DNA of 43,498 bases, taken from Trichomonas gallinae (taxonomy: Eukaryota). The notes beneath the pieces were generated by a model that was given only the letters and a program-made list of their open reading frames with translations, ran no database searches and was not told the origin of the DNA. The stretch lies in assembly GCA_008369845.1 (NCBI GenBank), contig MRSU01009624.1, positions 1 to 43,498 of the forward strand, given 5' to 3'. The translations under genes were made by a program, and so were the position numbers. Positions 1 through 43,498 of this stretch are shown here, in pieces. Within the stretch, counting starts at the first letter, position 1. Each line of letters begins with the position of its first letter.

Positions 1-73
1 TGCTTCTGGTGGGATTCGGACCCACGACCTTCCGCTTACTAGGCGAACGCTATAACCACTAGGCTACAGAAGC
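1..73 (-). tRNA. tRNA-Thr: tRNA-Thr(AGT)
   Basis: Reverse complement is GCTTCTG TAGCCTAGTGGTTATAGCG TTCGC CT-AGT-AA GCGGA AGGTC GTGGG TCCGAAT CCCAC CAGAAGC A. It forms a full cloverleaf with a 7-bp acceptor stem, AGT anticodon and no encoded CCA. The T-loop reads TCCGAAT instead of TTCGAAT. Confidence 0.93.
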
Positions 74-5227: not shown

Positions 5228-7381
5228 TTATTCAATTTCAACGATTGGAAGCTTGAGAAGAGTTCTAGAAATGATGTAAGATGAATTAGAATGCTTAAAC
5301 TGTACATTAATCCATACATCAATGTCCATTTCATATTTATCAAATTCAGGCTTTCTGAATAAGATGAGTCCTTCGTGTACATAGAACCTTCCAGATGTTG
5401 GAAGCTCTGTTGGTGTTGAATAATCGTACAAATTAGCGTGCGAGACTTGCAATGTGATTTTTGCGTCTTTATGTAGTTCATTTTCGATTGATCCATCAAT
5501 GTCGACGCCAACCATGAACTCCCCCATTTTCGGAACACGGACTTCATTATTGAGAAGACGAATGTTAGTGACTGAAATTGGAAATTCGCGTTTAAAGAAT
5601 GCAGGAGGAACATGTCTAAACTTGGAAACAATCGCATATAACTCATCAACACCTGGCTGTTGTCCCAAGGCTTGTATCTCAGTTGTCAATGTAGAGATTC
5701 TTTGCGCGCATTCATAACTGGTTTTGTCGAATTCTGCTGAAAGAAGTAATGAATACGTTGGAAAAGTCAATGCAATTCCTATCAAATCCTGTAAACCGTC
5801 AACAATCATATAAAGATCTGAAATTTCAGGAACAAGCTTCAAGAAAGAGAGCTGCAGACAAACGCTGGAGCACAAGAACCTGATTTTAGACAAAATGCAG
5901 TGAAGAGAAAACATTTCGCCTGATATTCTGAATGAACTTTCTGCTTGACTGTATAATAGGCACGCATTTGAAAAATCTTCTGACAAAAAGGCCAACTCAC
6001 CATCGGTGAAGAGTTTCAAGCTGTCGTAGAAGCCATCACCTCGTCTCATGCTGAAATAGTGTGAAGCTTGCTGATATTGGCCGATATGGAAAGCTACGAC
6101 ACCTAAAAGGCCTGGATCTGATGGAATGAAGTTCTTATTCAGCTCCTGATCGAGAACAAATGAAATTCTCGCCATTCCAATTTTTAATTTCTCAGTTGCG
6201 ATTTGAACAACTTCAGAAAGCTCAATGTATGATGATGCGTTATCAATAGATACGGATGAAAGGAATTCACCAACAGCATCTTGGTGATCTGATGAAATCA
6301 TGACTAATTCATAGAACATGTTACTGATTTCTGTATGCGTTTCATATGACAAAACATTCTGGTACTCGCTGAGCGCTCTAGTTACGTCAACAAACATCTT
6401 TGGATTTTTAAGATCATTTTTGAATTGCTGAATTTGCTCAACAATCTTTGTTCCCCATTCTGTTGTGCGTGGTAAAACGTATATTAATGAAACTAATGTG
6501 CGCAAATCGTTTGGTTCGATTGATTGAATATCAGAATCTGTAATATACATCAATGAGATGATTTTGAGGTATGGTGTAATATATTTGTAGTGTGTGATCA
6601 TTTCTTTGCAGAAATTGAACATGATTTCCATTTGTTCCGGAATTAAATATTTTATTGCTGGTCTGAGCTTGCGTAAGATTGTGCGAACAAATTTTTCATC
6701 TTCTTTCATGTAAGATAATATTCTCATTAATAACAAAAATGTTGAACGTGGAAAACTAAATATTTTCATTACGAAAACAATTGACGCATCGATCAATTCA
6801 ATCAAATTTGGATAATCATAGACCATGTAGTCATTGATTAACTGAATAGAAGACCGAATTACATGGTTTGATCTTGTTAAATAAGGAATAATATCAATAA
6901 TGTAAGGCATTTTGAGTTCTTTGACGATTTGAAGACAGAAGTAATCGTAATTCTTGCATAGTTCCATAGCAGCACGTTTCGCAGAAATGCTTTTTTCGAG
7001 ATTTGAAGTCATGCATCCACGAATTATTTGGCCAAGGATGGGCAATTCTGGCTTGATTGAGTTCGCAAAGATCTTTGTAGCCTGAAAAATGAAGGAATGA
7101 GTAATTTGGTTGTCGTAATTTAGTTGTTTTGTTAATAATGGGAAAAATGTAATCGGTTTTTTAAGTGGTTTGTAGCTGTTTTGTGTAATTTCTAAGAAAG
7201 TTATCATGCATTTGAGTACAAATGGATCCTGATACTTAGACATCACAGAAGCAATTTGTACTAAAGCTTCCTGCGCAGCAACAGGTCCTTCATCATGAAT
7301 AATTCGCATATTTTTTAAGAAAACGTCATTTAACTGAACTTGTATCTGTGGATTGTCTAAATCAATTGCTGTAGCATGCAT
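5228..7381 (-). CDS. Helical-solenoid protein with C-terminal beta domain; possible divergent Integrator complex subunit 7
   Basis: Uninterrupted 717-aa ORF (gene existence is secure). N-terminus (AQEALVQIASVMSKYQDP...LEITQNSYKPLKK) and VPPAFFK followed by a beta-rich tail resemble INTS7 as remembered; product call is tentative. Confidence 0.5.
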   Translation of the reverse strand: MHATAIDLDNPQIQVQLNDVFLKNMRIIHDEGPVAAQEALVQIASVMSKYQDPFVLKCMITFLEITQNSYKPLKKPITFFPLLTKQLNYDNQITHSFIFQATKIFANSIKPELPILGQIIRGCMTSNLEKSISAKRAAMELCKNYDYFCLQIVKELKMPYIIDIIPYLTRSNHVIRSSIQLINDYMVYDYPNLIELIDASIVFVMKIFSFPRSTFLLLMRILSYMKEDEKFVRTILRKLRPAIKYLIPEQMEIMFNFCKEMITHYKYITPYLKIISLMYITDSDIQSIEPNDLRTLVSLIYVLPRTTEWGTKIVEQIQQFKNDLKNPKMFVDVTRALSEYQNVLSYETHTEISNMFYELVMISSDHQDAVGEFLSSVSIDNASSYIELSEVVQIATEKLKIGMARISFVLDQELNKNFIPSDPGLLGVVAFHIGQYQQASHYFSMRRGDGFYDSLKLFTDGELAFLSEDFSNACLLYSQAESSFRISGEMFSLHCILSKIRFLCSSVCLQLSFLKLVPEISDLYMIVDGLQDLIGIALTFPTYSLLLSAEFDKTSYECAQRISTLTTEIQALGQQPGVDELYAIVSKFRHVPPAFFKREFPISVTNIRLLNNEVRVPKMGEFMVGVDIDGSIENELHKDAKITLQVSHANLYDYSTPTELPTSGRFYVHEGLILFRKPEFDKYEMDIDVWINVQFKHSNSSYIISRTLLKLPIVEIE

Positions 7382-7787
7382 TTTTAATTTTTTGACTTTT
7401 ACATGACATATTTACATAAATTGAAATATATTACATGTCAAAAATAGTACTATTTTGCAAAATTCATTTGGAAATCCTATCTATAGGTCAGTGTAATGCA
7501 GGGATTAATATTAGCGCAGAGCATCTGGAATAGCAAATATCATAAGATATATTATGAAACTGTTATAATTTTTAAATAATTAGAAATTGATTTTAATAAC
7601 TTATATTATGACTGTTTCACAGTTTTTGAGTGTAGTATTCTTGAATTTTGATTCACAATATTATGATTTTTATTTGCAAAAAATAAATAAATTTCAATAT
7701 GATTAGTAATTAACTTAATATGTATTTACACAGCAGATAAAATACAATACAGGCTTGTAAGACCTGACAATATAACAAAATAACAAA

Positions 7788-8492
7788 TTATTCTAAAGCT
7801 TGAAGCTGTTTCTTGAGTTCCTCGAGTTCTTTAGTTTTAGCTTCAATTGTAATATCTAGATTTTCGTTTAATGAGCGTGAACTTGGAGGCTGATTGTTGA
7901 TTTTCTCTGATTTTAATGAAGCTCTCTTAGCAAGAATTGGTTTGTTCTGTACTGCCAAGAGACGATTGAGTATGTGGTATGTTTCTTCCTCATTCGGTGG
8001 ATGAAGTGTTATTTGCCATCCATTTCTTAATAATAGAGGAACTTTGTCGTTGAAGCTTTCTGCAATCTTCCTTTCAGCTCTTGTCACAAGATCACCATTT
8101 ATTTTTCGTATTGTTGGAATTAAAATAATGATTCCTGATTTAAATGCTGCATTTTTCATTATGGGAGTGCCAAGCACATTAATAGATGTCAAACTTGGGA
8201 ACGATGGGAAATTTTTGAATGATTCAAACTCCGAATTCTCTAAATCAATTGATACAAGATTGCTTGTATTTGAGAGTCCATCAAGAGTCTTAAAGGGATT
8301 ACGACATAGCATTAAATGTGTTGTTCCAGATGGAATTTCAAGAACACTAAGTTTCGTAAGATTCATATTCGAATAATCCGTTGTACCATTGATTGTTTTG
8401 TCGAAAGCTGCCACCATTTTATCGTTCTTGATAGTGCGAGCTTTTGATGATGATAATGATTTGTGTGCACGTGAGATTGCGCGAATTTTCAT
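7788..8492 (-). CDS. Leucine-rich repeat protein with LRR cap and C-terminal coiled coil
   Basis: LxxLxLxxN-type repeats (HLMLCRNPFKTLDGL, LVSIDLENS, LTSINVLGTPI) and LRRcap-like IPTIRKINGDLVT. Confidence 0.8.
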   Translation of the reverse strand: MKIRAISRAHKSLSSSKARTIKNDKMVAAFDKTINGTTDYSNMNLTKLSVLEIPSGTTHLMLCRNPFKTLDGLSNTSNLVSIDLENSEFESFKNFPSFPSLTSINVLGTPIMKNAAFKSGIIILIPTIRKINGDLVTRAERKIAESFNDKVPLLLRNGWQITLHPPNEEETYHILNRLLAVQNKPILAKRASLKSEKINNQPPSSRSLNENLDITIEAKTKELEELKKQLQALE

Positions 8493-8774
8493 TTTTTTTT
8501 TCGTCTGTTTAAAATTTTGTTTTTTGTAAATTTTGTATTTGTTTTTTGTAATGTTTATGTATCATACTTCAATTATAAATCAGAAATTTTTGGATTTTTA
8601 CAGAAAATTATCGAAATTTCGAATCAAGATTCATAATAGAATTAATTTTGTATTATAATAATTTTAAAAATTAAAAGCTTATGTAAATCTAATCTATTTG
8701 GCTGAGTAACTTTTTATATATTTCATGTGAAAGTAATTATTCAATATAATTTATTTAAATAAAAACCATTTTAT

Positions 8775-9327
8775 TTACTTAAGAGGATGTGTAAAAACTG
8801 GTGCTTGATGGATTTGTTTTGTTTGGAAAGCCTTCTTGATTTGAGGATCTTCGCATAATTCGATTGGTAATTTTCCTTGGATATTAGATATTTTTGTATT
8901 AGCACCGTACTCTAATAAGCATCTTACGCCATCTGCACGATATTTTGCAGCCTCGTGTAACGGAACGTTTCCAAATTTGTCGCGATCGTTGATATCAGCT
9001 CCATTATCAATAAGGAATTTCATTATTGATACGTTAGATTTATGAGCGGCATTGTGAAGTGGTGTTGCTAAAGAAAAATTTAATAAATTTGTACATTCTT
9101 TGCCATTACATTGGCTCCTTTCTGAACAAGTAACTTGCATATATCTAGTTTATCATAGAATGCAGCGATATGAAGTGGTGTATCTCCTTATTAAAATGAT
9201 GAATTAATTAAGAATAAAAATGAATTTTGTTTGCAGCATTTAACTGTGAAGGGTCGGCATTCAACAATGCTTCGACTTGACTAGCATCACCTGTCTTGCA
9301 CAAATCGAAAATCGATGTTTGTGACAT
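8775..9327 (-). CDS. Ankyrin-repeat protein (about 166 aa) encoded in three segments separated by two short non-canonical inserts
   Basis: Segment 1 from ATG 9327: MSQTSIFDLCKTGDASQVEALLNADPSQLNAANK. Segment 2 (9187-9095): GDTPLHIAAFYDKLDICKLLVQKGANVMAKN. Segment 3 (about 9077-8775): FSLATPLHNAAHKSNVSIMKFLIDNGADINDRDKFGNVPLHEAA... The ORF track shows only segment 3 with a spurious N-terminus. Confidence 0.75.
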
Positions 9328-9847
9328 TTTTGTCAATTTTTTATCCTAAACTCACCTCACATTTCGATTTTTTATGCATTAACAATAGGATTTGACCAGT
9401 TATTTGGATTCTATCACGTTATTCTACTATTTTCGATACATTTATATCAGATATTTAATTCTAAACATCCAAAAGATGGATTTGATGAATTGTATAAGGA
9501 GAGGTATGATGCAATTCCAATACTGATTTTAATTTCAAAATATATTATAGCATAGCGTATGGTATAGCTTATCAGATTGATTCAAACTTCATATACAGGT
9601 ACAGTTCCATATGGAGGATACGAATGCAAAGTTCATTGATCCTGCTGCAGTCGGACCCTGTTTTGAAAATTACATTCGATTTTAACTTCAAAATCTAGTA
9701 GGTAAACATGATAGAATATTATAGACACTAATAGGATGATTGAAACTAAGTATTATTTATATTTGATTTTCCTTTAGAATTTCATTCATGGTTTTCTTGA
9801 AAAAAATGATACATATATATTAATTAAATGTTGATACATAATGCATT

Positions 9848-10800
9848 TTATTCCAATGTAGAAACTATATATAGGGTAGGGAGTTCAATTACTTTAAATA
9901 GATTGTTTCCATAATTTTCATATATTGTTTCAGGTGTCGATTCATAACCTTTAAAAATTTGTATTTTCTTAGGACACTTGTTAGAAATATCAAATTTTAA
10001 TTTGAAAGAATTTGGAGATGAACAATTATAATTATGATCGTTACCAATGAAATATGCATCTATTATATTGAATGAGTCAGCTGAGTACATGTTCTCCCCT
10101 TTATTATAACTAAAGATGCATTTTGTAATATTAAAATTTCCAGGACAAGAAATCAAATCAAAATCTACATTATTTTTAGTAATAATGCAATATTCGATTC
10201 CCCAATTTTCACTCTCATGATATAATCCATAATGTTCGCATGAGTTATTTATAAAAATCGAATATGAACATATACTGTCTTCATCATGTCGATACATGCT
10301 GTACATAGCCCTAGAATAAGTAATAGTATTACTTACATTCATATGAATATCTCTAACTTTACCATATGCAAGTTCGTAAGGAGCTATACCTGAATCAAGA
10401 TCCCTGCCACATAAATTTAACGATGAATGATTGAAATAATCACGCTTTGACGATCCTTCTTCTGCCCATACATATGAGAAATGAGCATAACCAGTTCCAT
10501 AGCAATTTATTGTGCAAAGTTTTGTTTGAATAGCTTCTCCACCAGAATATTGACCGAAAAAAACAGCACCTCCATCTAACCCTTCTAAATTCGTTATATT
10601 ATCAAACATGCAATCTTCCAGTAACATCTTAGTATTTGAGGAAGCAGGATTGATGATGACTGAGCCATTTACAGAATTTGCAAAATGCACATTTGATATC
10701 ATCCAATATCTATCAGATGCAAGTGTTCCCCCAGTTGAGAACTCTGGGGTTCCATCAAAATAATCAGCCCAAAGACAATGCTTTATTGAGATTGTTACAT
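9848..10800 (-). CDS. Cys/Asn-rich beta-helix-like hypothetical protein of an expanded trichomonad family; 5' end apparently frameshifted
   Basis: 284-aa ORF (DCMFDNI, DGGAVFF, CSYSIFINN, YCIITKN) stays open upstream of 10702 as VTISIKHCLWADYFDGTPEFSTGG. The only nearby ATG (10800) is out of frame by 1 nt (ATG TAA). Confidence 0.6.
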
Positions 10801-10870
10801 TTTGTCTTTTTTTTAAATTAGAAAAAAATTACTCGTAAACAAAAATATATTCGAAATACAAAATTATATA

Positions 10871-10921
10871 AAAAATATACGCCACTTTTTGTGCGAAGCT
10901 CAAAAAGTGGCGTATATTTTT
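10871..10921. repeat. Perfect 21-bp inverted repeat with 9-nt spacer
   Basis: AAAAATATACGCCACTTTTTG-tgcgaagct-CAAAAAGTGGCGTATATTTTT. Confidence 0.95.
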
Positions 10922-11309
10922 ATTCTTGCGCCTTCAATTTTGAATCATTTTGAGCATTTTTTTTCAAGATAATTATAACCGTTTCAATTCAAAATTGAAT
11001 GTTCAAGAATAAAAGTGAAAACGATTTAAAATATTTTGTATAAAAATGACAAATAATTAGCCTCCAAAGATTAATTATCTTATTAATAACAAAATAAAAA
11101 ATCGGTGTATCCATTATAAAAGTGATAAAACATTAATTGTCAATTTTTTGTTTTTACCGAATTGTTTGTTATATAACTTAATATTTTTATTAATCATCAT
11201 ACTGGCTCGCTTGATACTGAAATAATAAGTCATAATAATCAATATTGTATAAGAATTTACTTTTTTTTTTATTTTTGCAAAATTCAAAAAAGTACAGAGA
11301 AATTTGCTA

Positions 11310-11510
11310 GATCTTATTACGGAAATCAATGAACCAGCATTTTCAACTAGTAAAAACAAACACAACATAAACCAAAGAAAATTAAAATTGCTACATAATC
11401 AGGAGCATTTAGTGATTGTTCAAATCTTGGATCAATCGAATTCCCAATCAACTTAAACCTGTAGGATCATATATAATTAGTTCTGGCATAAGTGATATAC
11501 TTATCAAATT
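11310..11510 (+). pseudogene. BspA-like (TpLRR/LRR_5) pseudogene fragment
   Basis: Frame-shifting pieces LITEINEPAFSTSK, GAFSDCSNLGSIEFP (11402-11446), then NQLKPVGSY..SSGISDILI match the IxxxAFxxCxxLxxIxxP consensus. Confidence 0.7.
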
Positions 11511-12231
11511 CTATTCCAGGGTTCGAAAGATAAGCATTAATTTTTACATTGTATCGATATTTCACCTTAATATTATGGATATCTTATTGCCAGCACATTA
11601 GTATCTAATATAAATATATGTGATTATACATAATATCAATATATAGTTAATAATTCTCATATCTTCACTTCATCGATAAAATTGCGATCAAAATATTGTG
11701 ATTTAAAACGGTTTAGCTATATTAAATGTATATGCAGATAATACTTACCGTTAAGCACTTGTGCACATTGAATAAAATGATATTTTTGATATACTTTATA
11801 TTTACCAATAATATTACTTATCGACAACAATAGCTAATTTATTGATATGTTATTACATTCATTTTAAATTTTTATTCTCTAAATTATATATGATCAAGTA
11901 TGAATATTGGTGAAAATCGAAATTAGATTTCGACCAATATCAGATTTAACAAAATATAACTATCAGATCATTTGGTTACATAAGCTATTTGTTTGATGTA
12001 TATAGATGATTCCAGAATATATCACACTTTCGAAAAAAAACATCCAAATTCTGGGGACAATAATCGTTTTTTGTGACTTTTTTGGGATTCAGGAACATCC
12101 ATTAGTCAACTGAATAAAAATACATGAATTAAGCAGCCTGTATAAAAATTCTTAATTTATTTTACATGACATATGTCAAAAAATACATGACATATGTCAA
12201 AATATGCGAAATTACATGTCATTTTCCAGAA

Positions 12232-13614
12232 ATGGAGTTAGAGAATGGTATCTCGACTGTTTTTGGATTTGAAGTAGCTCCAGAGTTCCAGCAATGCATT
12301 ATGATAGAACGACTCATTTACAAATTAGAAGAATCGAATTTTGATGCAACTGTTCGCTCATTTCAAGAATTAAACATAAACGATGATTTCTACAAAGATT
12401 ATGTATATCGCGTACTTGCAGCAGCTAATGAATGCTATATATTCAAAACAGAGCTATATGGAAGGCTTTGGTTCGCTCTAGGTTGGCAGCAAAAATATAT
12501 TATTCCAAATGATTTCGAATTATACATTGCAAGGAAGTCCAATAACACAGAACTCCTAGAAAAATTCGAATGCGACCCTTTGCAGCCTCTAGAAACCTAT
12601 ACACATAAAAATTTGCCTCCAATTTTCATGGCAATATTAGCAAATGACGTCGCTGAAATACAGAGATTGATTGCAGATAATCAATATGTCTTACAATGTG
12701 ACATAATTTTAAAAGCAGACTGTATTTCAGTTTTAGATTTTTGCGCGCTTCTTGGTAATTTCCTTTTATTCAGATTCTTCGTTGATAAAGGCTGCCAAAT
12801 TTTTGGTTCTACTGTTGAATGCGCAATAAGATGCGGAAATTTAAATATAATTACGTACTTGATCGAAAAAGGCTTTAGTGTTGAGAATTACTTCGATATT
12901 GCATTAGAGTTCCACCAGACAAGGCTTGCAGAATTGTTAATAAGGAGAATTCCTGATGAAAACGCAATAATTAACTCATTAAAAGCCGCAGTTCGAGGAT
13001 TCAACACAGCAGGACTATATATATTCAAGTTTTTCGGTATAGAATTCGATAAAATCCAGTCTTCAAGCAGTTTGATTCTTCATCATGCTACTTTTTGGGG
13101 AAATATAGTATTAACAAAATATTTAATCGAAAAAGCCGGCGCTTATGTCAATAGAATAGGTTTGGGCGGTCTGTCAACATTCCATTATGCCATCAGAGGT
13201 GGAAATTTCGAATTAATTAAATATTTAGTTGCACAAGGTGCAGATATTAACATGAGATCGGGATTTGGCGTATTGGTTGAGCGAAAATTCCAGCCATGGC
13301 AGACAGAAGAAGAAACTTACGAGATTAAGTTTAAAACACCTGTTCCTTTTGTTATAAATTATGATTTTGATCCTGATTCTCGTTCGCAGACGAAAGAGTC
13401 ATATTCGAACCACGGAAAGACTCCTTTAATTTTAGCAATGCTAGAATCTAATCTTTGGCTTTGTGAATACTTACTTGATATTGGAGCTGATAGAACAATC
13501 AAAGATAACAGAGGCCATGATTTTGACTACTACAAGGACAGATTTGATCAATCTTTGAATCAATTTGAAGAAGAAGAATATGATATTGCAATAGAATTTG
13601 ATGATGAGATTTAA
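12232..13614 (+). CDS. DUF3447-like/ankyrin-repeat protein
   Basis: Start probably MELENG at 12232 (initiator TCATT at 12219; the upstream MTYVKKY residues come from a promoter repeat). DUF3447-like region AIRCGNLNIITYL...ALEFHQ; ankyrin repeats GLSTFHYAIRGGNFELIKYLVAQGADIN and GKTPLILA. Stop overlaps TAAA. Confidence 0.85.
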   Translation: MELENGISTVFGFEVAPEFQQCIMIERLIYKLEESNFDATVRSFQELNINDDFYKDYVYRVLAAANECYIFKTELYGRLWFALGWQQKYIIPNDFELYIARKSNNTELLEKFECDPLQPLETYTHKNLPPIFMAILANDVAEIQRLIADNQYVLQCDIILKADCISVLDFCALLGNFLLFRFFVDKGCQIFGSTVECAIRCGNLNIITYLIEKGFSVENYFDIALEFHQTRLAELLIRRIPDENAIINSLKAAVRGFNTAGLYIFKFFGIEFDKIQSSSSLILHHATFWGNIVLTKYLIEKAGAYVNRIGLGGLSTFHYAIRGGNFELIKYLVAQGADINMRSGFGVLVERKFQPWQTEEETYEIKFKTPVPFVINYDFDPDSRSQTKESYSNHGKTPLILAMLESNLWLCEYLLDIGADRTIKDNRGHDFDYYKDRFDQSLNQFEEEEYDIAIEFDDEI

Positions 13615-28540: not shown

Positions 28541-28588
28541 AACAACTGAATTATGTATTTTTTTGTTTGTATAAAATCTAGTATAATA

Positions 28589-28813
28589 TCTTCAATTATA
28601 TTCTTTCTAATATATATAATATTAAATTATACAACCTAAGTAATAATATTTCACTAGCTAAACTATAGATGATCATTAAATATTTTTTGTTGTTTAATTC
28701 ATTTATTAAATCTTCAATTTCATTCTTTCTAATATATACAATAATCAAATATGCAATCTAAATAATAATATTTCATTCACCAAAATATATATAATCATTA
28801 ATAAATTTTGTCG
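28589..28813. repeat. Degenerate tandem duplication (about 122-bp period)
   Basis: TCTTCAATT.(c)ATTCTTTCTAATATATA...TAATAATATTTCA...ATCATTA at 28589 and 28711. Confidence 0.8.
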
Positions 28814-34425: not shown

Positions 34426-37400
34426 TCAAACATAAAACTCTTCTTGATTAGATAACTCATCTGAAAGCACATTAGAATTCTTGTTGAAGTGCTTGATTGC
34501 GATAACAGCGCCAATGATTCCGGTAATGACAGCGATTGCGCCTACTGTGGCACCAATGATGACTGGCAAATTCTTAGAATTTTGTTCATTTTTGTCATTA
34601 GGATTATCATCCTGTCTGGAGCCACGATCATTTGGAGAAACTGCTGAAGTCGTTGTTGGTTGATCATCAGGTTTCGTTTTATCACCTCCGTCACCTTCTT
34701 CTACATCACCATCATCGCCGCCTTTATCATCTCCTTTTTCTTCTTCTTTTCCTTCTCCTTTATCGCCTTCATCTTTACCTTCTTCTTCACCTTTTCCTTC
34801 TCCTTTATTATCTCCTTCTTCTTCACCTTTTCCTTCTCCTTTATTATCTCCTTCTTCTTTTCCTCCTTCTCCATTTTCATTACCTTTTTCTTCTTTTCCT
34901 TCCTCACCTTCATTACCTTCTTTTCCTTCGCCTTCATTATCTTTATCTTCTACTTTTCCTTCACCGTCATCACCTTTATCTTCTCCTTCATTGTGACCTT
35001 CACCTTCCTCATTGTGGCCTTCATCGCCTTGGTGTTCATTTTCGTTTTCACTGGCACCTTCATTATTTCCTTTATCATCACCTTCACCACCTTGATTTTC
35101 GCCATGGTCTTCATCACCTTCATCGGTTTCTTCTGGTGGTGTTTCTAATACAGGAAGAGGCTCGGTGACTTCTTCAAGGTTTGCATTGGCAAGTAAACCT
35201 GCAATTTCGATTTCTCCTTTTCTTGCAACTAATGAAATTATATGCTGTGAGTTTGGCGTTAAACCATCAATGCAGAAGAGAATGCTCTGGTAGATATTAT
35301 CCATGGCCATTTTTTCGGCATCTTCTGGGTCAATGTATGTTGTGTCGATGCTTCCAATGAATTTTGTGCCATCGTAAACATCTAAAACGCCGCCACCATA
35401 CTTAAGATGACGATCGCCAATAATTACGATAGAGTTGCCTGTAGAATTAAGATGAACATTGCATGTTAATCTTGCACTTTCATTGAGGTGCCAGCCTTTT
35501 CCATTATAATAAATACCTTCTTTAGAAAGATTTCCTGATCCTGTTAATTTGAATTTCGTGTGTGTTGCTGGAATGATGTTATCTGTTGTTCCTGCATTCC
35601 TTAGTATTGGGAAGACTTTAGAAATTGTGTTTCCTGCTGTTGTAATAGAAAGAACTTTGCATGTATGAGGTGCATCAAAATCAATTGCATTATTTGAACT
35701 TGGATCGTAATTCTGATTATAGATTTGTTCTCCATCGCATGAAATTTGAAGATTTGCGGCGTTTTGAAGTGGAATTCTGAGTCTGTCGAATTTGATTTGA
35801 TGTTTGAAGTCAACGTTGTATGTTGTTAAGTCAGCTGTTGCTTGACGACTGTTTGGATTTGTAATCTTGAATTTGCGATTGTCATATTTGAGATCTCTTG
35901 AATCGACAAAGTGTCCAAGTGTTGGATCATTTTCAAAATCAGGAACGAATTCATATGTATCAACATCTCCTTCCTTTGCATTCCAGAACATTGTCATCTT
36001 ATCAGTGATTGACTTAACTTGATCATTATCATTGTAAACAAAGCCGATTTCACCGTTTGCAAAACCACCTCTTGTTTGGACCAACAAATATCTGAAGTAG
36101 TAGTGTTTGCCTTCTTGGAGATTGGTATAACCTTCGCGAACCTGGGTACCCTGGCGTACTGAAACGCGGTAATTTCTAGCCTGCATTACATCTTCAGGGA
36201 GAGGTTGGGCAGAGATATAAAACTCGCCATCATATGAAGACTTGAATACGAACTTGTGTTGAGAAGTTTTCTCTGGAATGAAAATTCCCTCAACCATTGC
36301 AATCCATCTGACATTATAAGGGAATTCTGGATTAGGTATATTTATTCCTGATCCAGTTTCAGATGCTGCGGTAGCTTTGTCACCCATCATTGTATTATAA
36401 GCAGATCCCAAAGTTAATCTTCCTGTTGGTTTATCGTAATAAATTGTGACACCATTGACAATCTGTCTAACCTTAACAACGACTGTAGTTATCTGCTCAT
36501 TTGTTGTATCTTTATACTTAACATAAAACTTTTCAATAGCATGAATATCTTCAGGTGGAGTGTAATTATAAACACCGTTGCTTATTTCTTCAAGATTTCC
36601 TGTTACTGGAGTAATTGAATCAAATTCAAAGTCGTGGCATCCAGGGACTGTTGTCTTATATTTAGCAAAGTTAAATGTATACGGTGCCCTGCATGGGATT
36701 GTAAATGGTCTGGCTGTTTCAATTTCAGTGCCATCATCAAGTACATAACCAGTCTGATATAAACAAGCTACTGGATGTAATTCTTTGTAACCTAATGCTG
36801 TAATTTTGTCATGAACTTCTTGGCTAATATCTGTGTCATAGTTTAAGTATGGTACTTGATCATCTCCAGTTCCTTCTATTAATCCGCTAAATGTCTTATA
36901 AAAAGGTCTGACATCGCGCTTTGACATAGTACAGAGATGAAGCAAGAATTCTCCATGGTAGCCATATTGACTTCTCTTGAAATCTTTCTGTATAACATGT
37001 GCCTTTAAAATCTTGCGCCACAGGTCATGGCCGAAGAAGTAGAGATAGTTTGAGTAGAATGCTAACATGTCTTTGTAAGTGAGTGACTTGTATGGATGAG
37101 CTCTTTGATTCCAACCCATGCCAATGATTTTGTACTGATCTTTGAAATTAACGCGTCTTGTTTCCGTCATCTGACACATCTTTGCATATGAGATGAGGTT
37201 GAGAGCATTGTTCGTGACCTCAACGAAGTTTCCTGTACCCCAGTTCTCCTGGAAATGATGTCCATATTCATGGAATTGTCCCCAGGCTCCCCATTTTGCG
37301 GTATCGTAGCTGGAAAAATCTCCGAACCAACTTGATGGTGCCTGGACATAATTATACCAAATATAAGCCAAAGCACCCTTATTGTCGGGAACGAATGAGT

Positions 37401-38337
37401 CTAAATGGAACTGTAATGGTTTATGAACGCGTCCGTCTGAACGACGAGGATATTTATAGATTTCATTGATTGAATATAAAACTCTGCTTGTTCCACGCCA
37501 TAATGCCATAGCGTCATTCATCTTAAGTGAGTTGCGCGCGTAAACACTTGGACCAGTTATAACCATTGCACCTGTATCTAGCATCATTATTGGTGCTGGT
37601 AATTTTGATATTTCTTCTTCCCACTCTTGATCAGTGTGTACACCATATTTGAAGAATGGAGCTCTGATGCCACCTGTAATATTAACATCAAATCCCAAAT
37701 TATATGTATCTACATCTAATTGAAGAACAAGATTTGCGCCAAATGGCCAAGCGATTTGGTTAACTCGTTTATGGAGAGGTATGTAAGCAGCCAATCTTCT
37801 TGTCCTATAGTTCCATTCAGGATTGTCTTTGCAATGTCGATCCATGTGTGCATTAATCTTACCAACAGCTTTTTCAGGTATTTCGATTGTAATAGATTCT
37901 CCTGGTGGCATGTATACGCCTGTATAGTGATATTCTTGATATCTTGTGTTCATAAATAATCTAAATTTATATCTTGGTGCGTCATTTACTAGTTTTGCAT
38001 CACCTTCAAACTGATTAACACCAGCTGGATGTGCAAATAGCTTGTCTTTTGGAAAAACATCGTGCGCTTCTAAATAATTGTCGAAAATTGCGGAAGTTTC
38101 TTTTTGTAATCTGTCATTATCTGCGGTTTTTGCATGGTCTGGCCAGCCGTATTCTTCGTATTTGATTGGTGGGTTGACCCAGCCAGATTCGTTAATAAGT
38201 CTAACTTCTGGCTTTTCTACTTCATGCAAAATAACCAAGCTGTCGCATTCTTGAGCTTGAACTGTGTCAGTGCCAGTGTAACCAAATCTTGATGGAGTGA
38301 ATGGTTTGATGAATTGTAATAATAGAAACAAAAACAT
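34426..38337 (-). CDS. M60-like (enhancin/PF13402) surface zinc metallopeptidase with PA14-like and putative carbohydrate-binding domains, acidic stalk and C-terminal TM helix
   Basis: ATG at 38337 (MFLFLLLQF leader, initiator TCATA). HYTGVYMPPGE, PFGANL, WGQFHEYGHHFQ..EVTNN gluzincin motif (HEYGH at 37272-37258); G/E/K/D repeat stalk; TM VIIGATVGAIAVITGIIGAVIAI. Confidence 0.9.
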   Translation of the reverse strand: MFLFLLLQFIKPFTPSRFGYTGTDTVQAQECDSLVILHEVEKPEVRLINESGWVNPPIKYEEYGWPDHAKTADNDRLQKETSAIFDNYLEAHDVFPKDKLFAHPAGVNQFEGDAKLVNDAPRYKFRLFMNTRYQEYHYTGVYMPPGESITIEIPEKAVGKINAHMDRHCKDNPEWNYRTRRLAAYIPLHKRVNQIAWPFGANLVLQLDVDTYNLGFDVNITGGIRAPFFKYGVHTDQEWEEEISKLPAPIMMLDTGAMVITGPSVYARNSLKMNDAMALWRGTSRVLYSINEIYKYPRRSDGRVHKPLQFHLDSFVPDNKGALAYIWYNYVQAPSSWFGDFSSYDTAKWGAWGQFHEYGHHFQENWGTGNFVEVTNNALNLISYAKMCQMTETRRVNFKDQYKIIGMGWNQRAHPYKSLTYKDMLAFYSNYLYFFGHDLWRKILKAHVIQKDFKRSQYGYHGEFLLHLCTMSKRDVRPFYKTFSGLIEGTGDDQVPYLNYDTDISQEVHDKITALGYKELHPVACLYQTGYVLDDGTEIETARPFTIPCRAPYTFNFAKYKTTVPGCHDFEFDSITPVTGNLEEISNGVYNYTPPEDIHAIEKFYVKYKDTTNEQITTVVVKVRQIVNGVTIYYDKPTGRLTLGSAYNTMMGDKATAASETGSGINIPNPEFPYNVRWIAMVEGIFIPEKTSQHKFVFKSSYDGEFYISAQPLPEDVMQARNYRVSVRQGTQVREGYTNLQEGKHYYFRYLLVQTRGGFANGEIGFVYNDNDQVKSITDKMTMFWNAKEGDVDTYEFVPDFENDPTLGHFVDSRDLKYDNRKFKITNPNSRQATADLTTYNVDFKHQIKFDRLRIPLQNAANLQISCDGEQIYNQNYDPSSNNAIDFDAPHTCKVLSITTAGNTISKVFPILRNAGTTDNIIPATHTKFKLTGSGNLSKEGIYYNGKGWHLNESARLTCNVHLNSTGNSIVIIGDRHLKYGGGVLDVYDGTKFIGSIDTTYIDPEDAEKMAMDNIYQSILFCIDGLTPNSQHIISLVARKGEIEIAGLLANANLEEVTEPLPVLETPPEETDEGDEDHGENQGGEGDDKGNNEGASENENEHQGDEGHNEEGEGHNEGEDKGDDGEGKVEDKDNEGEGKEGNEGEEGKEEKGNENGEGGKEEGDNKGEGKGEEEGDNKGEGKGEEEGKDEGDKGEGKEEEKGDDKGGDDGDVEEGDGGDKTKPDDQPTTTSAVSPNDRGSRQDDNPNDKNEQNSKNLPVIIGATVGAIAVITGIIGAVIAIKHFNKNSNVLSDELSNQEEFYV
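34725..35040 (-). repeat. Coding tandem repeats of the acidic stalk, including a perfect 36-bp duplication (GDNKGEGKGEEE)
   Basis: The unit CCTTCTTCTTCACCTTTTCCTTCTCCTTTATTATCT occurs twice near 34778-34858, within more degenerate copies. Confidence 0.85.
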
Positions 38338-38799: not shown

Positions 38800-38990
38800 T
38801 ATATTTACATTACATATTTTATAATCTGACAAAGTATCAATTGTAAAATTTACATGGCATTTTATTTTGTAATTTGGCAAGGTGTCAAATTCAATTTTTA
38901 CATGGCATCTTATTTTGTAATCAGACAAATTGTCACTTGAACAATTTACATGACATATTATTATCACAAATCTGACATATTGACAGATTG
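38800..38990. repeat. Degenerate 48-bp tandem repeat (about 4 units)
   Basis: TTTACAT cores at 38804, 38849, 38897 and 38945, each followed by ..CAT..TATTTTRTAAT..G(A)CAA. Confidence 0.8.
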
Positions 38991-39301: not shown

Positions 39302-40573
39302 TTATTCTGTGAATCGGCTGATTAATGCTGAGAAAGCCTCATTTGCATCTTGTGAATCGACGTCTCCTTGGAATGGTTCACCCTGGATAGCGTTAAGTGA
39401 GACACCAGCACTGATGCAGAACTGCTTGACCTTCTCGATATCGATCTTGCCCTTGTTTGCGATTGTGTAGAATCCGTTTGCTCTAATCTTAGCCTGGTCG
39501 ATGATCCAATTGGCCATGTTATCGAAATCAGTGAATGTTGAGATCTTAGAAAGGATTTTCTCGTCGCGCTGAAGGATTTCGGCGATTTGTTCCTTAGACA
39601 TTGATCTTGTTAAGAGGGACTTGCATGTAATGACAAGGCAGAAGTCAGAGCAGTCACCCAAGAGAGTATCATGGATAAGTTCGTGGCCTGGGAAATCCTC
39701 GGAGTCGAAAATAAATGTAATATGAGATCCAAGGTTGTGGCAAACGAATGTAGCGTTCATAACTTCTGTGAAGATATCAGCGGAATCCTTGTTGCGAGTA
39801 TCGACGACGTAAATAACTGAATATTTTGGTCTGAGAGATACGATTCTGGCGTTCAAAGTCTCGCGATTGAAAGATTGCATTGTTAAGAGGTGGCCCTTTA
39901 AGTTCTGCTTTTCGAAAACGGAAAGGATTGGAAGAGAAATGTGCGATGAGTTGCAAATTAAAACGAAATCAGAGTTTGTATTTGTAAGTCTATCCTCGAT
40001 TGGATGCTCGATTCTGTATCTTAATGTCTCGACGAGTTCTGGTGTAACTGGTGAGGACTTTGTATCCTTTTCTGAAAGGACATAGCTATCCGAATTAATT
40101 GGCTTTGGCCATTGGATACCGATCTGTGGGTCCATTGGGTTAACAGCGAAGTCGAGGTGTGGGAAGAAGCAGCCGCCCTGATAATAGCAAAGAACGGAAT
40201 CTTCTTCAGCGGAGAAAACGCCGTGAGCGCAGTATGGTGGAACAATGACGTGTGTATCCTTATCAAGCCAGCATCCAGCCCACTTCATGAATGTTGGGGA
40301 GTTTGGACGCATGTCGACGCAAACATCGAACATCTTGCCTTGAGGGCAGAAGGCGATCTTGTGATATGGAGCAATGTGGATGCCACGGATGACATTCAGT
40401 TTAGATCTAGAGATGTTGATTTGCTTCATTTCTGGATCAGTGTGATTTTTAAGAATGTTGAAAAGCTCGATTAAGTCTGTATTCGGGTCTGCTGTTGTTC
40501 CTGGCTTTCTGATAGCCTTGTACTGAATCATTCCATCGACTGCAAGTGGTGTTGCTTCGAAATGATCAATCAT
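39302..40573 (-). CDS. rmlC: NDP-4-dehydrorhamnose 3,5-epimerase (RmlC cupin) fused to a degenerate SDR (RmlD/NRS-ER-like) domain
   Basis: First ATG at 40573. QINISRSKLNVIRGIH, KIAFCPQGKMFDVCVDMRPNSPTFMKW, VPPYCAHG, DPQIGIQWP and LSEKD are RmlC signatures. Confidence 0.88.
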   Translation of the reverse strand: MIDHFEATPLAVDGMIQYKAIRKPGTTADPNTDLIELFNILKNHTDPEMKQINISRSKLNVIRGIHIAPYHKIAFCPQGKMFDVCVDMRPNSPTFMKWAGCWLDKDTHVIVPPYCAHGVFSAEEDSVLCYYQGGCFFPHLDFAVNPMDPQIGIQWPKPINSDSYVLSEKDTKSSPVTPELVETLRYRIEHPIEDRLTNTNSDFVLICNSSHISLPILSVFEKQNLKGHLLTMQSFNRETLNARIVSLRPKYSVIYVVDTRNKDSADIFTEVMNATFVCHNLGSHITFIFDSEDFPGHELIHDTLLGDCSDFCLVITCKSLLTRSMSKEQIAEILQRDEKILSKISTFTDFDNMANWIIDQAKIRANGFYTIANKGKIDIEKVKQFCISAGVSLNAIQGEPFQGDVDSQDANEAFSALISRFTE

Positions 40574-42503
40574 TCCAAATTTTTGAACGATATTTTTTTG
40601 GTTTAACTTCACTTTCCTAGTTCAGCATGTTTTCTATATGTAAACAAACAGGAATTTATCACTTTAATAAAAAAATTATATAAATTTACATGTCAGATTT
40701 GATTTGTTTCAATGCTTACGTGTCAGAGGAAAGGTTTAAAAAATTCATACCACTTAATCAAATTAAACAGTAGTTTGCTGGCTGCTAATGTTTAAACGGC
40801 TGTTCTTTCGCTCAATAATCTTAATATAATTCTTGTGCTTTTGAAGGTTTACCTTCAAATAATATTATTTGGTAGAGTATTTGCAGCTTGTATAGATATC
40901 ATTGAGTCGTTCATTGTTTTCCCCATTTGTCATGTTATCGATTTCAAGATTTGCAAAGTTCCAAATTTTATCCTAATATGAAATAATTAACAACAATACC
41001 AATAATATTATGATAATGTAAATGCTTTTACACTACTTAACGTATATAAAAGTGCAGATATGAATTATTCGCAGAAAGTCAAAGGATAATATAATAAATT
41101 TCTGTGATAAATGATGAATTTATCTAAATTTAATATTATTTTATGAGTTTAAAGCGCTAATTTATCAAGTTTTTCATTATGAAATTCACATTTTATCAAA
41201 AAAATCAAGAAAATTCTGTAGTTCCTACGATGAATTTCTTTCAAATCTTGTGATTTTGCTAAAAATTACCGGTGAAATTGGGCTCGTATGAGCTTGGATA
41301 TCACATCATTAACATTATCAGTCATGGATTATTAATGTAATAGTTAATATAATTATTATTTCTGTCTTCAAGTCTATTCTGCATGAAATTACAAAGTAAT
41401 ATATGCGTGCTTCCATATTGATTAATAGTAACACTGGTATAAGATATGATATCTATTCGACGAAGGTATTTTATCTTATTGATGTTTTTATATAACGGGT
41501 TTTTTAACTCCATACTCAGTATTTCATTGACTTATGAAAGAATATCAAAGATTTTAATGAGATATAGTTTCAGTCTTTATTCATTAAAAAATGCCAAATG
41601 TAATGTTTTGGATTTTTCTATTTATTGGAAATTTGGAACATTGGAACTGCATCAAATGTTCATAAGCATAACATTTACAGTATAGATATGTCAGTTTTCG
41701 CTTATCGATGTTGAAATTTCAGATATTGCTTAGAAAATCTGCATTCTCTTTCTGTAGGTTCAGCAGTGTATAAAGAAAGACCGAAAAATCATGATCTTAA
41801 TTTCCTAAGCAGCAAATGTATAACTTTCCGATTCAATAGATCTCGTTAATTCAAAACAAAATAGTTGTATCAATGACCATCGGGGACCTTTGTAAAGTAA
41901 TCATATGCAAACTGACTTTGATATCTTCTCGGAACGTCAAAATGTTAGTAATGAAATTTGAAGAAAAAGTTTGACAATCTGACTCATAAAAGATCTAATC
42001 AAATCATAGTAAATTCCAGAATAATTTTAATCTACTCATACCAAAAATCTTAATCCACAAATTTAATCTAAAAATCGATTTAAAGTGTTTTGACACGTAA
42101 ATATTTTTGGAAAATGTTCGAATTTCATACATAATCATGAAAAATTTATTGTAGTTATTAAATTAAGGAAACATTCATAGGAAAAATCAATAATATTTTT
42201 TTGACATGTAAAACATATAATTCAAATGTCAGATTTTTGTGGATATTTATGCTTTATTTATGGTAATTATTAAATTAACAAAGCGGGTTAAGGAGAATCA
42301 GATAATAGTTTTTTGACATGTAAAGGTCAGATTTCACTCCGACCAAAGTCTTTTCGTTATGATATTTTGGTTACAAACAAGGAATTAACTTGATATTTAA
42401 AATAAAAACCAGAATAAAATTTACATCGACGATACAGGAAGTTTGGTCAATGCAAAATTTCCCTTAGAAATAATTGTGAGACTCAGAAATCGCATTTTTT
42501 ATT

Positions 42504-43498
42504 ATGGCCTGCTCTTCCCCACAAGGTGCACCATTCGAGTACAGAATCCAGGACATCAACCTCCACGTCCTCGGCCGTAAGGAACTCACACTCGCTGAGA
42601 AGGAAATGCCAGGACTTATGGTTCTCCGTGAGCGCTTCTCCGCTACAAAGCCACTCAAGGGCATCAGAATCTCTGGCTCCCTCCACATGACAGTCCAGAC
42701 AGCCGTCCTCATCGAGACACTCGTCGCTCTCGGTGCTGATGTCAGATGGGCATCTTGCAACATCTTCTCTACACAGGATACAGCCGCCGCTGCCGTCGTC
42801 GTCGGCCCAACAGGCACACCAGAGAAGCCAGCTGGTGTTCCAGTCTTCGCCTGGAAGGGCGAGAAGCTTCCAGATTACTGGGAGTGCACATACAGAGCCC
42901 TCACATGGCCAGATGGCAAGGGTCCAAACCAGATTGTCGATGATGGTGGTGATGCTACACTCCTCATCGCTAAGGGCCACGAATTCGAATGCGCTGGCGC
43001 CGTCCCAGAGCCAACAGACAATGATAACGAGGAATACCGCTGCGTCCTCGCTGTTCTCAAGCAGGTCTTCAACCAGGACAAGAACCACTGGCACAATGTT
43101 GTTGCCGACATGAACGGTGTCTCTGAGGAGACAACAACAGGTGTCCACAGACTCTACCACCTCGAGGCCCAGGGCAAACTCCTCTTCCCAGCCATCAACG
43201 TTAACGATTCCGTTACAAAGTCCAAGTTCGATAACATCTACGGTTGCCGCCACTCCCTTATCGATGGTATCAACCGTGCTTCCGATGTTATGATCGGCGG
43301 CAAGACAGCTCTCGTCATGGGCTACGGCGATGTCGGCAAGGGCTGTGCTCAATCACTCCGCGGTCAGGGTGCTCGCGTCATCATTACAGAAATTGACCCA
43401 ATCTGCGCTCTCCAGGCTGCCATGGAAGGCTACCAGGTCCGCCGCATCGAGGAAGTCGTCAAGGATGTCGATATCTTCGTCACATGCACAGGCAACTG
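42504..43498 (+). CDS. SAHH: S-adenosyl-L-homocysteine hydrolase (3' end outside the window)
   Basis: [39 protein letters not shown]...[62 protein letters not shown]. Absent from the ORF track because no stop lies in the window; strong C-ending codon bias. Confidence 0.98.

Follow-up and report, generated by a model that had tools for sequence, protein, structure and literature searches.

We found that an ankyrin gene on the minus strand of the window, a 43,498-nt stretch of Trichomonas gallinae DNA (contig MRSU01009624.1), is interrupted by two short inserts that are kept in a second genome and are missing from an assembled contig of a sequencing run guessed to be RNA. We conclude that this is a real, conserved and probably spliced feature, a likely pair of non-canonical nuclear introns in one gene, as seen in contigs of which the RNA label was guessed. 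Open reading frame translations gave three ankyrin-coding segments, each in a different frame; the first begins with an ATG at 9327 and the last ends in a TAA stop at 8775-8777 that overlaps a TAAA. Exon 1 (9226-9327, 102 nt, codons 1-34) holds the ATG and a first, degenerate ankyrin repeat, exon 2 (9089-9190, 102 nt, codons 35-68) one ankyrin repeat, with the next in-frame Met at codon 63, and exon 3 (8775-9071, 297 nt, codons 69-166 and the stop) two ankyrin repeats and a tail; the equal length of exon 1, counted from the ATG, and exon 2 may be chance. Between them lie insert 1 (9191-9225, 35 nt, 89% AT) and insert 2 (9072-9088, 17 nt, 94% AT), both of phase 0 and free of G. Pfam Ank matched segment 2 (E=1e-10) and segment 3 (E=5.6e-14), at 41.7 and 51.9 bits against a curated cut-off of 21.1, as expected of an ankyrin repeat protein, and gave no match to segment 1 searched alone. 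The original prediction had described the three segments, the ATG and the TAAA-overlapping stop, and had given the inserts as about 90% AT and as each running into an in-frame TAA within 5-6 codons; the frames, the Pfam matches (for segments 2 and 3), the composition of the excised pieces and the translation agree with it.

Taking out 35 and 17 nt leaves 501 nt, i.e. 166 codons and a stop. When 49 pairs of excision lengths were scored against 273 ankyrin proteins, the 35/17 pair was top-scoring for 154 proteins and the next pairs for 18 each. Removal of these lengths had been predicted to give consensus repeat spacing and a 166-aa protein, and the two gaps in the probable RNA contig described below have the same lengths. 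The boundaries had been placed at 9188-9222 and 9078-9094, off by 3 and 6 nt from those of the contig. The two inserts had also been assigned the same repeat position: both joints do lie in the same repeat loop, but they are one codon apart, before -3 (joint 1) and before -2 (joint 2) relative to the T of TPLH. A Leu before T-T-P-L-H in P0151, considered as support for joint 2, was set aside as a likely start-codon artefact, P0156 having Met there.

Of seven public sequencing runs listed, three, from three studies (X1, X2 and X3), contain part of the stretch; they were compared with the window as assembled contigs, not as reads, together with X4 and X5, of which no contig aligned, a blank without evidential value. 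By automated guess X1, labelled bird metagenome, is DNA (402 million letters, longest record 89 kb), whereas X2 (21 million letters, longest record 8 kb) and X3 (76 million letters, longest record 14 kb, with partly different alleles) are RNA, a status guessed without a library record; X1 and X2 are different samples from different studies. In X1, one 882-nt contig (depth 27.8, 37 differing letters) extends over 8680-9499 and carries both inserts. Because this single contig from a second genome keeps them at full length, the inserts are real, common to two diverged genomes and not an assembly error. Among the X1 records listed there was no insert-free copy. The sole X2 contig over the gene (504 nt, depth 26, covering 8769-9321) lacks both inserts: it joins 9190 to 9226, skipping the 35 nt of 9191-9225 with 96 letters on the short side, and it skips the 17 nt of 9072-9088 with long flanks on both sides. 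Aligned to the stretch without exon 1, this contig showed a 96-letter loose end that continues into exon 1, and over 9226-9321 it has one differing letter. A 155-nt contig of X3 (depth 3.2) ends at 9071, and its 11-letter loose end matches the end of exon 2 at 10 of 11 letters. The intergenic DNA next to the gene is not covered by X2, an absence that carries no evidential weight; that X2 and X3 cover both end at 8481, where X1 continues, is a weak hint. We consider the X2 contig very likely to be mRNA and, taking it as such, removal of the inserts at the RNA level, the most economical reading, is therefore likely. In ribosomal bypass, as in T4 gene 60 and Magnusiomyces byps, the insert stays in the mRNA; given that bypass needs the insert there and that both are missing from the probable RNA itself, the proposal that ribosomes bypass the inserts found no support.

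All 10 exonic differences found in X1, X2 and X3 are synonymous in the joined frame (0.28 expected by chance, P ~3e-6). These comprise 2 of 2 in exon 1, 2 of 2 in exon 2 (one from the depth-3 contig) and 6 of 6 in exon 3; leaving out the two low-depth X3 letters, 8 of 8 are synonymous. Between the window and X1 the count is likewise 8 of 8 among the differences listed, those for X1 exon 1 being possibly incomplete. In a neighboring gene, for comparison, 4 of 5 differences are synonymous. All three exons look to be under purifying selection on these counts. Since the 10 differences are synonymous in a joined frame made up of three genomic frames, the gene is not decaying, and the random decay that the original prediction had argued against is disfavored. 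The prediction of non-canonical introns gained support from the same exons and from the contigs, as the probable RNA contig lacks both predicted lengths and a DNA contig of the same alleles keeps them. That the inserts are introns in the broad sense is likely: they are present in the window and X1 and absent from the X2 contig, and X3 is without insert 2, with the RNA label guessed and the strains differing.

The shared alleles bear on a DNA-level explanation, in which the organisms of X2 and X3 carry an insert-free allele or paralogue (or the runs are DNA) and the allele in the window is broken. Each of the 12 differences listed for X2 is common to X1, and three of them (9039, 9143 and 9289) flank and sit between the inserts, yet X1 keeps both inserts. 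Because X2 shares the X1 alleles, a genomic explanation needs two precise losses on the X1 haplotype, and it would also need a second loss of insert 2, in X3. The guessed RNA status of X2 and X3 and the different strains behind the DNA and the RNA leave room for it, the leftover TAA described below would suit a dead allele, and an intron-less paralogue mimicked splicing in T. vaginalis, according to the available text of PMC12316389. Set against this, the inserts of the window and X1 differ by one listed substitution each, the wholly synonymous exonic differences between these two genomes are unlike those of a dead allele, and an insert-free allele would still hold the TAA unless an unlisted X2 letter sits there. 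On balance, we regard a DNA-level difference as improbable.

The joints could also be artefacts of reverse transcription (template switching) or of assembly, the mRNA being unspliced and decoded by ribosomal bypass or frameshifting. The evidence comes from contigs only and joint 1 has 2 nt of microhomology, and T. vaginalis has 923 frameshift-split genes for which there is an old idea of translational frameshifting (10.64898/2026.08.31.748405, available part). Joint 2, however, lacks microhomology and was seen again in another study, there is no stable structure that would favor skipping, and the skipped form is the only X2 contig over the gene, at a depth of 26. Two chance deletions would restore the frame once in 9 cases, and rarely at consensus lengths. 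We hold this explanation to be very improbable and return to excision from the RNA.

The feature fails the tests of every intron class checked. Insert 1 has the ends AT..AA, and its cut may sit 1-2 nt further upstream (AA..TA, AA..TT), while insert 2 has the ends AT..CT and allows no alternative sliding placement. Searched on both strands, GT-AG, GC-AG and AT-AC ends had no placement within 2 mismatches of either joint. There is no CTAA in or beside either insert, consistent with the predicted lack of a CTAAC-type motif. Both inserts start with AT, as in U12-type introns of the AT-AC kind, but end with AA and CT, and their donor departs from the U12 consensus ATATCC at the third base. The CAG/CTG signature and paired ends of euglenid introns are likewise missing, with no G in either insert and no significant fold: folded with their flanks, neither region was better than shuffles (z=0.42 and 0.56), and the excised inserts alone have a fold energy of 0. 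IRE1 splicing of HAC1 and XBP1 removes a short 3n+2 piece, shifts the frame and dispenses with GT-AG, as with the inserts here; its targets have twin stem-loops with a CNG-CNG loop at each cut site, which the joint sequences and folds of this ankyrin gene with its two pieces do not show. Trichomonas introns are described in the available text of PMC12316389 as GT-AG introns that have a fused branch site and measure either 23-28 or 56-196 nt, type B being those of 23-28 nt with a TCTAA branch at -12 to -8. At 35 and 17 nt the inserts fall outside both length classes, and neither has ACTAA or TCTAA at -12 to -8. The same source reports U12 components as absent in T. vaginalis (PMC12316389, in part).

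A 27-nt GT..AG stretch around insert 2 (9068-9094, minus strand) has a 5' end that fits the type B consensus donor and has no branch motif. It was rejected as the excised piece, as X2 retains its first 6 and last 4 nt; because its length is 3n it cannot restore the frame, as had been predicted. As for signals of the inserts' own, comparison of the two suggests an AA preceding the cut, an ATTYATT that begins the insert, a 3' U run and a TWAG immediately past the joint as possible candidates, from two cases only. The 5' heptamers are alike at 6 of 7 positions (P=0.04 by shuffling, borderline) and the 3' ends at 4 of 7 (P=0.43).

We consider it reasonably likely that the inserts are tiny non-canonical introns. 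A spliceosome relaxed in its recognition of intron ends would probably excise both from the pre-mRNA, the ribosome would read through or recode the TAA of joint 1, and the outcome would be a 166-residue ankyrin-repeat protein. The enzyme itself is a guess, for which a relaxed spliceosome is our tentative choice; we favor it because the U2 spliceosome is thought to handle the divergent ends of Fritillaria introns, which it likely removes (PMC12621601, available part), and because the 3' ends of the inserts are U-rich. Several points count against this best explanation: there is no branch motif and the ends of both inserts are unlike those of any known spliceosomal class, insert 2 at 17 nt is shorter than the shortest intron known in Trichomonas (23 nt), the main joint retains a stop, which is odd in a productive splice, a strain or allele difference between X1 and X2 is possible, and contigs hide minor forms.

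The missing spliceosomal signal at either end would suit removal without a spliceosome, in which an endonuclease cuts both ends and an RNA ligase of the RtcB or Trl1 type joins the exons. IRE1-type introns, like both inserts, are 3n+2. As both 5' cuts lie in C-AAA(A)-UU followed by a U-rich run, a 3'-end processing nuclease is a candidate for the cutter; the T. vaginalis cleavage motif is given in the available text of PMC13515687 as AA(0-3)UU, located 11-30 nt downstream of UAAA and followed by a U-rich element, and a TAAA begins 17 nt upstream of joint 1. Joint 2, by contrast, has no TAAA within 40 nt upstream, and CA(3-4)TT is common, with 45 occurrences in the window's 27,966 coding bases. 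As no fold exceeded shuffles, the stem-loops of IRE1 substrates and the bulge-helix-bulge of tRNA introns are missing. A nuclease plus ligase is the rival candidate for the enzyme, less likely than the relaxed spliceosome but not far behind it.

With the observed joint, codon 35 is an in-frame TAA (9188-9190, minus strand), which occupies the variable -3 position within the repeat loop, so that joint 1 reads Asn-Lys-stop-Gly-Asp-Thr-Pro-Leu-His; the original statement that the segments carry no other lesions does not hold. A full-length product would need readthrough or recoding at this codon. Since no change at 9188-9190 is listed for X1, both genomes have the TAA, which is older than the eight synonymous changes. 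X2 has 7 differing letters in 8769-9192, six of them at listed positions; judging from which differences are listed, those within ~30 nt of the end of an aligned piece go unlisted, so that the seventh would fall in 8771-8799 or 9162-9192 and may be in the TAA, in the A-rich 3' end or elsewhere. Readthrough of the TAA may well occur, although we would not call it probable; a different letter in the RNA is conceivable but rather unlikely, a minor joint that avoids the stop, whether by a one-base shift or by a cut of 38 nt, is improbable, and truncation or a restart at Met63 is quite improbable. Shifting joint 1 by one base avoids the stop and differs by one letter; the coordinates of the X2 joint speak against its being the form in X2, and it is possible as a minor form. 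Given that the differences upstream of Met63 are synonymous (3 of 3; chance 0.28 cubed, ~0.02), there is a weak sign that the N-terminal part may be translated into protein. UAA readthrough inserts Gln, Tyr or Lys, and each of these occupies the -3 position in 5-6% of 1670 TPLH motifs. For T. vaginalis, the available text of PMC3378599 describes tentative readthrough of TGA, a tagged construct across the TGA having given signal, and that of 10.64898/2026.08.31.748405 describes 118 curated transcripts that, on RNA evidence, span adjacent predicted genes.

Homologue searches yielded general ankyrin proteins. One orthologue search gave 0 of 1 candidate and another 2 of 6, at ~40% identity, and no orthologue was found; 3229 general ankyrin matches were obtained, the best identity to the joined protein was 47% among 275 proteins retrieved, and the best 150 representatives are long general ankyrin proteins with no such inserts. 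Further matches, at 31-50%, were to 10 loci from metagenomes and 2 from prokaryotes, and none of the 10 metagenome loci is broken likewise. By exact sequence, 0 of 10 window proteins were in the protein collection, and a protein cluster atlas returned general ankyrin clusters only. Patterns of the junction motifs matched neither metagenome contigs nor viral contigs (0 each), collections that may contain few trichomonads. A scan of the window for canonical trichomonad introns gave 2 loose matches, neither convincing, and Rfam gave 7 weak matches in 7000-11500, all below the gathering score and none on the ankyrin gene. A second case of such inserts was found neither in the window's 15 long ORFs nor in its other ankyrin gene.

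The window is AT-rich eukaryotic DNA with long unbroken genes, whose want of introns is in keeping with a trichomonad. Its second ankyrin gene (12166-13614, plus strand, 482 aa, weak DUF3447 match, E=0.037) is unbroken, so not every ankyrin gene in the window is split. A 36-nt ankyrin motif at 8992-9027 is matched by other X1 and X2 contigs (the X2 contig being 1160 nt), which represent a paralogous ankyrin gene. At 9570-9700, close to the ankyrin gene on its upstream side, a short element is matched by many X1 contigs, one of 84 nt at a depth >2000, and is likely a multi-copy repeat. On the minus strand at 9848-10822, the ~40 codons that precede the ATG of a 284-aa ORF are free of stops in its frame, and an ATG near 10800 lies in another frame with a TAA immediately after it; a one-base lesion, an assembly slip or a further split 5' end is possible there. 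A near-perfect intergenic hairpin (10871-10921, 24-nt arms, 96% complementary) lies near a second inverted repeat (10918-11014) and had sub-threshold matches only in Rfam. Elsewhere, there are a tRNA-Thr(AGT) (1-73, minus strand), a dTDP-4-dehydrorhamnose 3,5-epimerase domain with a long C-terminal extension (39302-40573, minus strand), an adenosylhomocysteinase at 42507 that presumably resembles the T. vaginalis enzyme, and an M60-like peptidase (34426-38337, minus strand, 1303 aa) that has an acidic Gly/Glu repeat and, at the C terminus, a hydrophobic stretch, and that looks like a surface mucin-degrading enzyme. Intergenic tandem repeats occur at 38815-38958 (48 nt), 28550-28793 (122 nt) and 42112-42324 (~112 nt), and the motifs TTTACATGAC and AAAAGTGAC, recurrent in several intergenic regions, are possibly promoter elements.

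Among known systems, Trichomonas type B introns come close in being very short, U-rich and set in an intron-poor genome; ankyrin genes are among their hosts (3 of 63 in T. vaginalis), and two short introns per gene occur in T. stableri (PMC12316389, available text). The inserts are unlike type B introns in their lengths, their AT..AA and AT..CT ends and their want of a TCTAA branch. The pipeline by which the known Trichomonas introns were defined drops junctions without these motifs and removed 99.7% of questionable junctions (PMC12316389). The non-canonical U2 introns of Fritillaria borealis have divergent ends and are likely spliceosomal, as proposed here; there they make up most of the introns of a chordate genome, whereas here we have two tiny cases in one protist gene and a guessed enzyme (PMC12621601, in part). 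Nonconventional introns of euglenids and diplonemids resemble the inserts in being in nuclear mRNA, in not being GT-AG and in the unknown mechanism, but carry CAG/CTG motifs and paired ends in the descriptions available (PMC12501133, PMC12621601), unlike the G-free inserts with no significant fold. In Giardia, non-canonical junction candidates are GC-rich and some are in ankyrin genes, where they are rarely spliced, 93-273 nt long and near multiples of the repeat unit (PMC10711314, available text). Trichomonas split genes share adjacent broken frames, one transcript, one protein, an apparently tolerated stop and ankyrin examples with our case; the available parts of these reports propose readthrough on unspliced RNA, whereas here the spacer is missing from the probable RNA and one stop is left (PMC3378599; 10.64898/2026.08.31.748405). 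The available text of PMC6679479, PMC8529796, PMC3111441 and PMC11529991 describes no intron of such a kind, and a full-text literature search, with most subscription papers outside its scope, turned up no mention of non-GT-AG introns from parabasalids.

As described so far, trichomonad introns follow one rule: they are uniformly GT-AG, have a fused branch site and are at least 23 nt long. The finding bears on a question posed since the 2007 genome: are the T. vaginalis split genes, counted in the available text of 10.64898/2026.08.31.748405 as 923 split by frameshifts and 542 by stops, pseudogenes or genes mended during expression? Trichomonads might have a second RNA excision system, a doubtful extension of our data, which would remove G-free pieces of 17-35 nt marked by AA before ATTYATT and by TWAG, without spliceosomal signals and paired with UAA readthrough at the joint, and which would act in many repeat-protein genes and account for part of the ~1,465 split genes of T. 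vaginalis; intron pipelines that filter by motif drop such cases. If true, introns of 17 nt (AT..CT) and 35 nt (AT..AA) in a gene that is conserved would break the rule for trichomonad introns and point to a hitherto unknown splicing chemistry in a lineage that parasitizes humans and animals.
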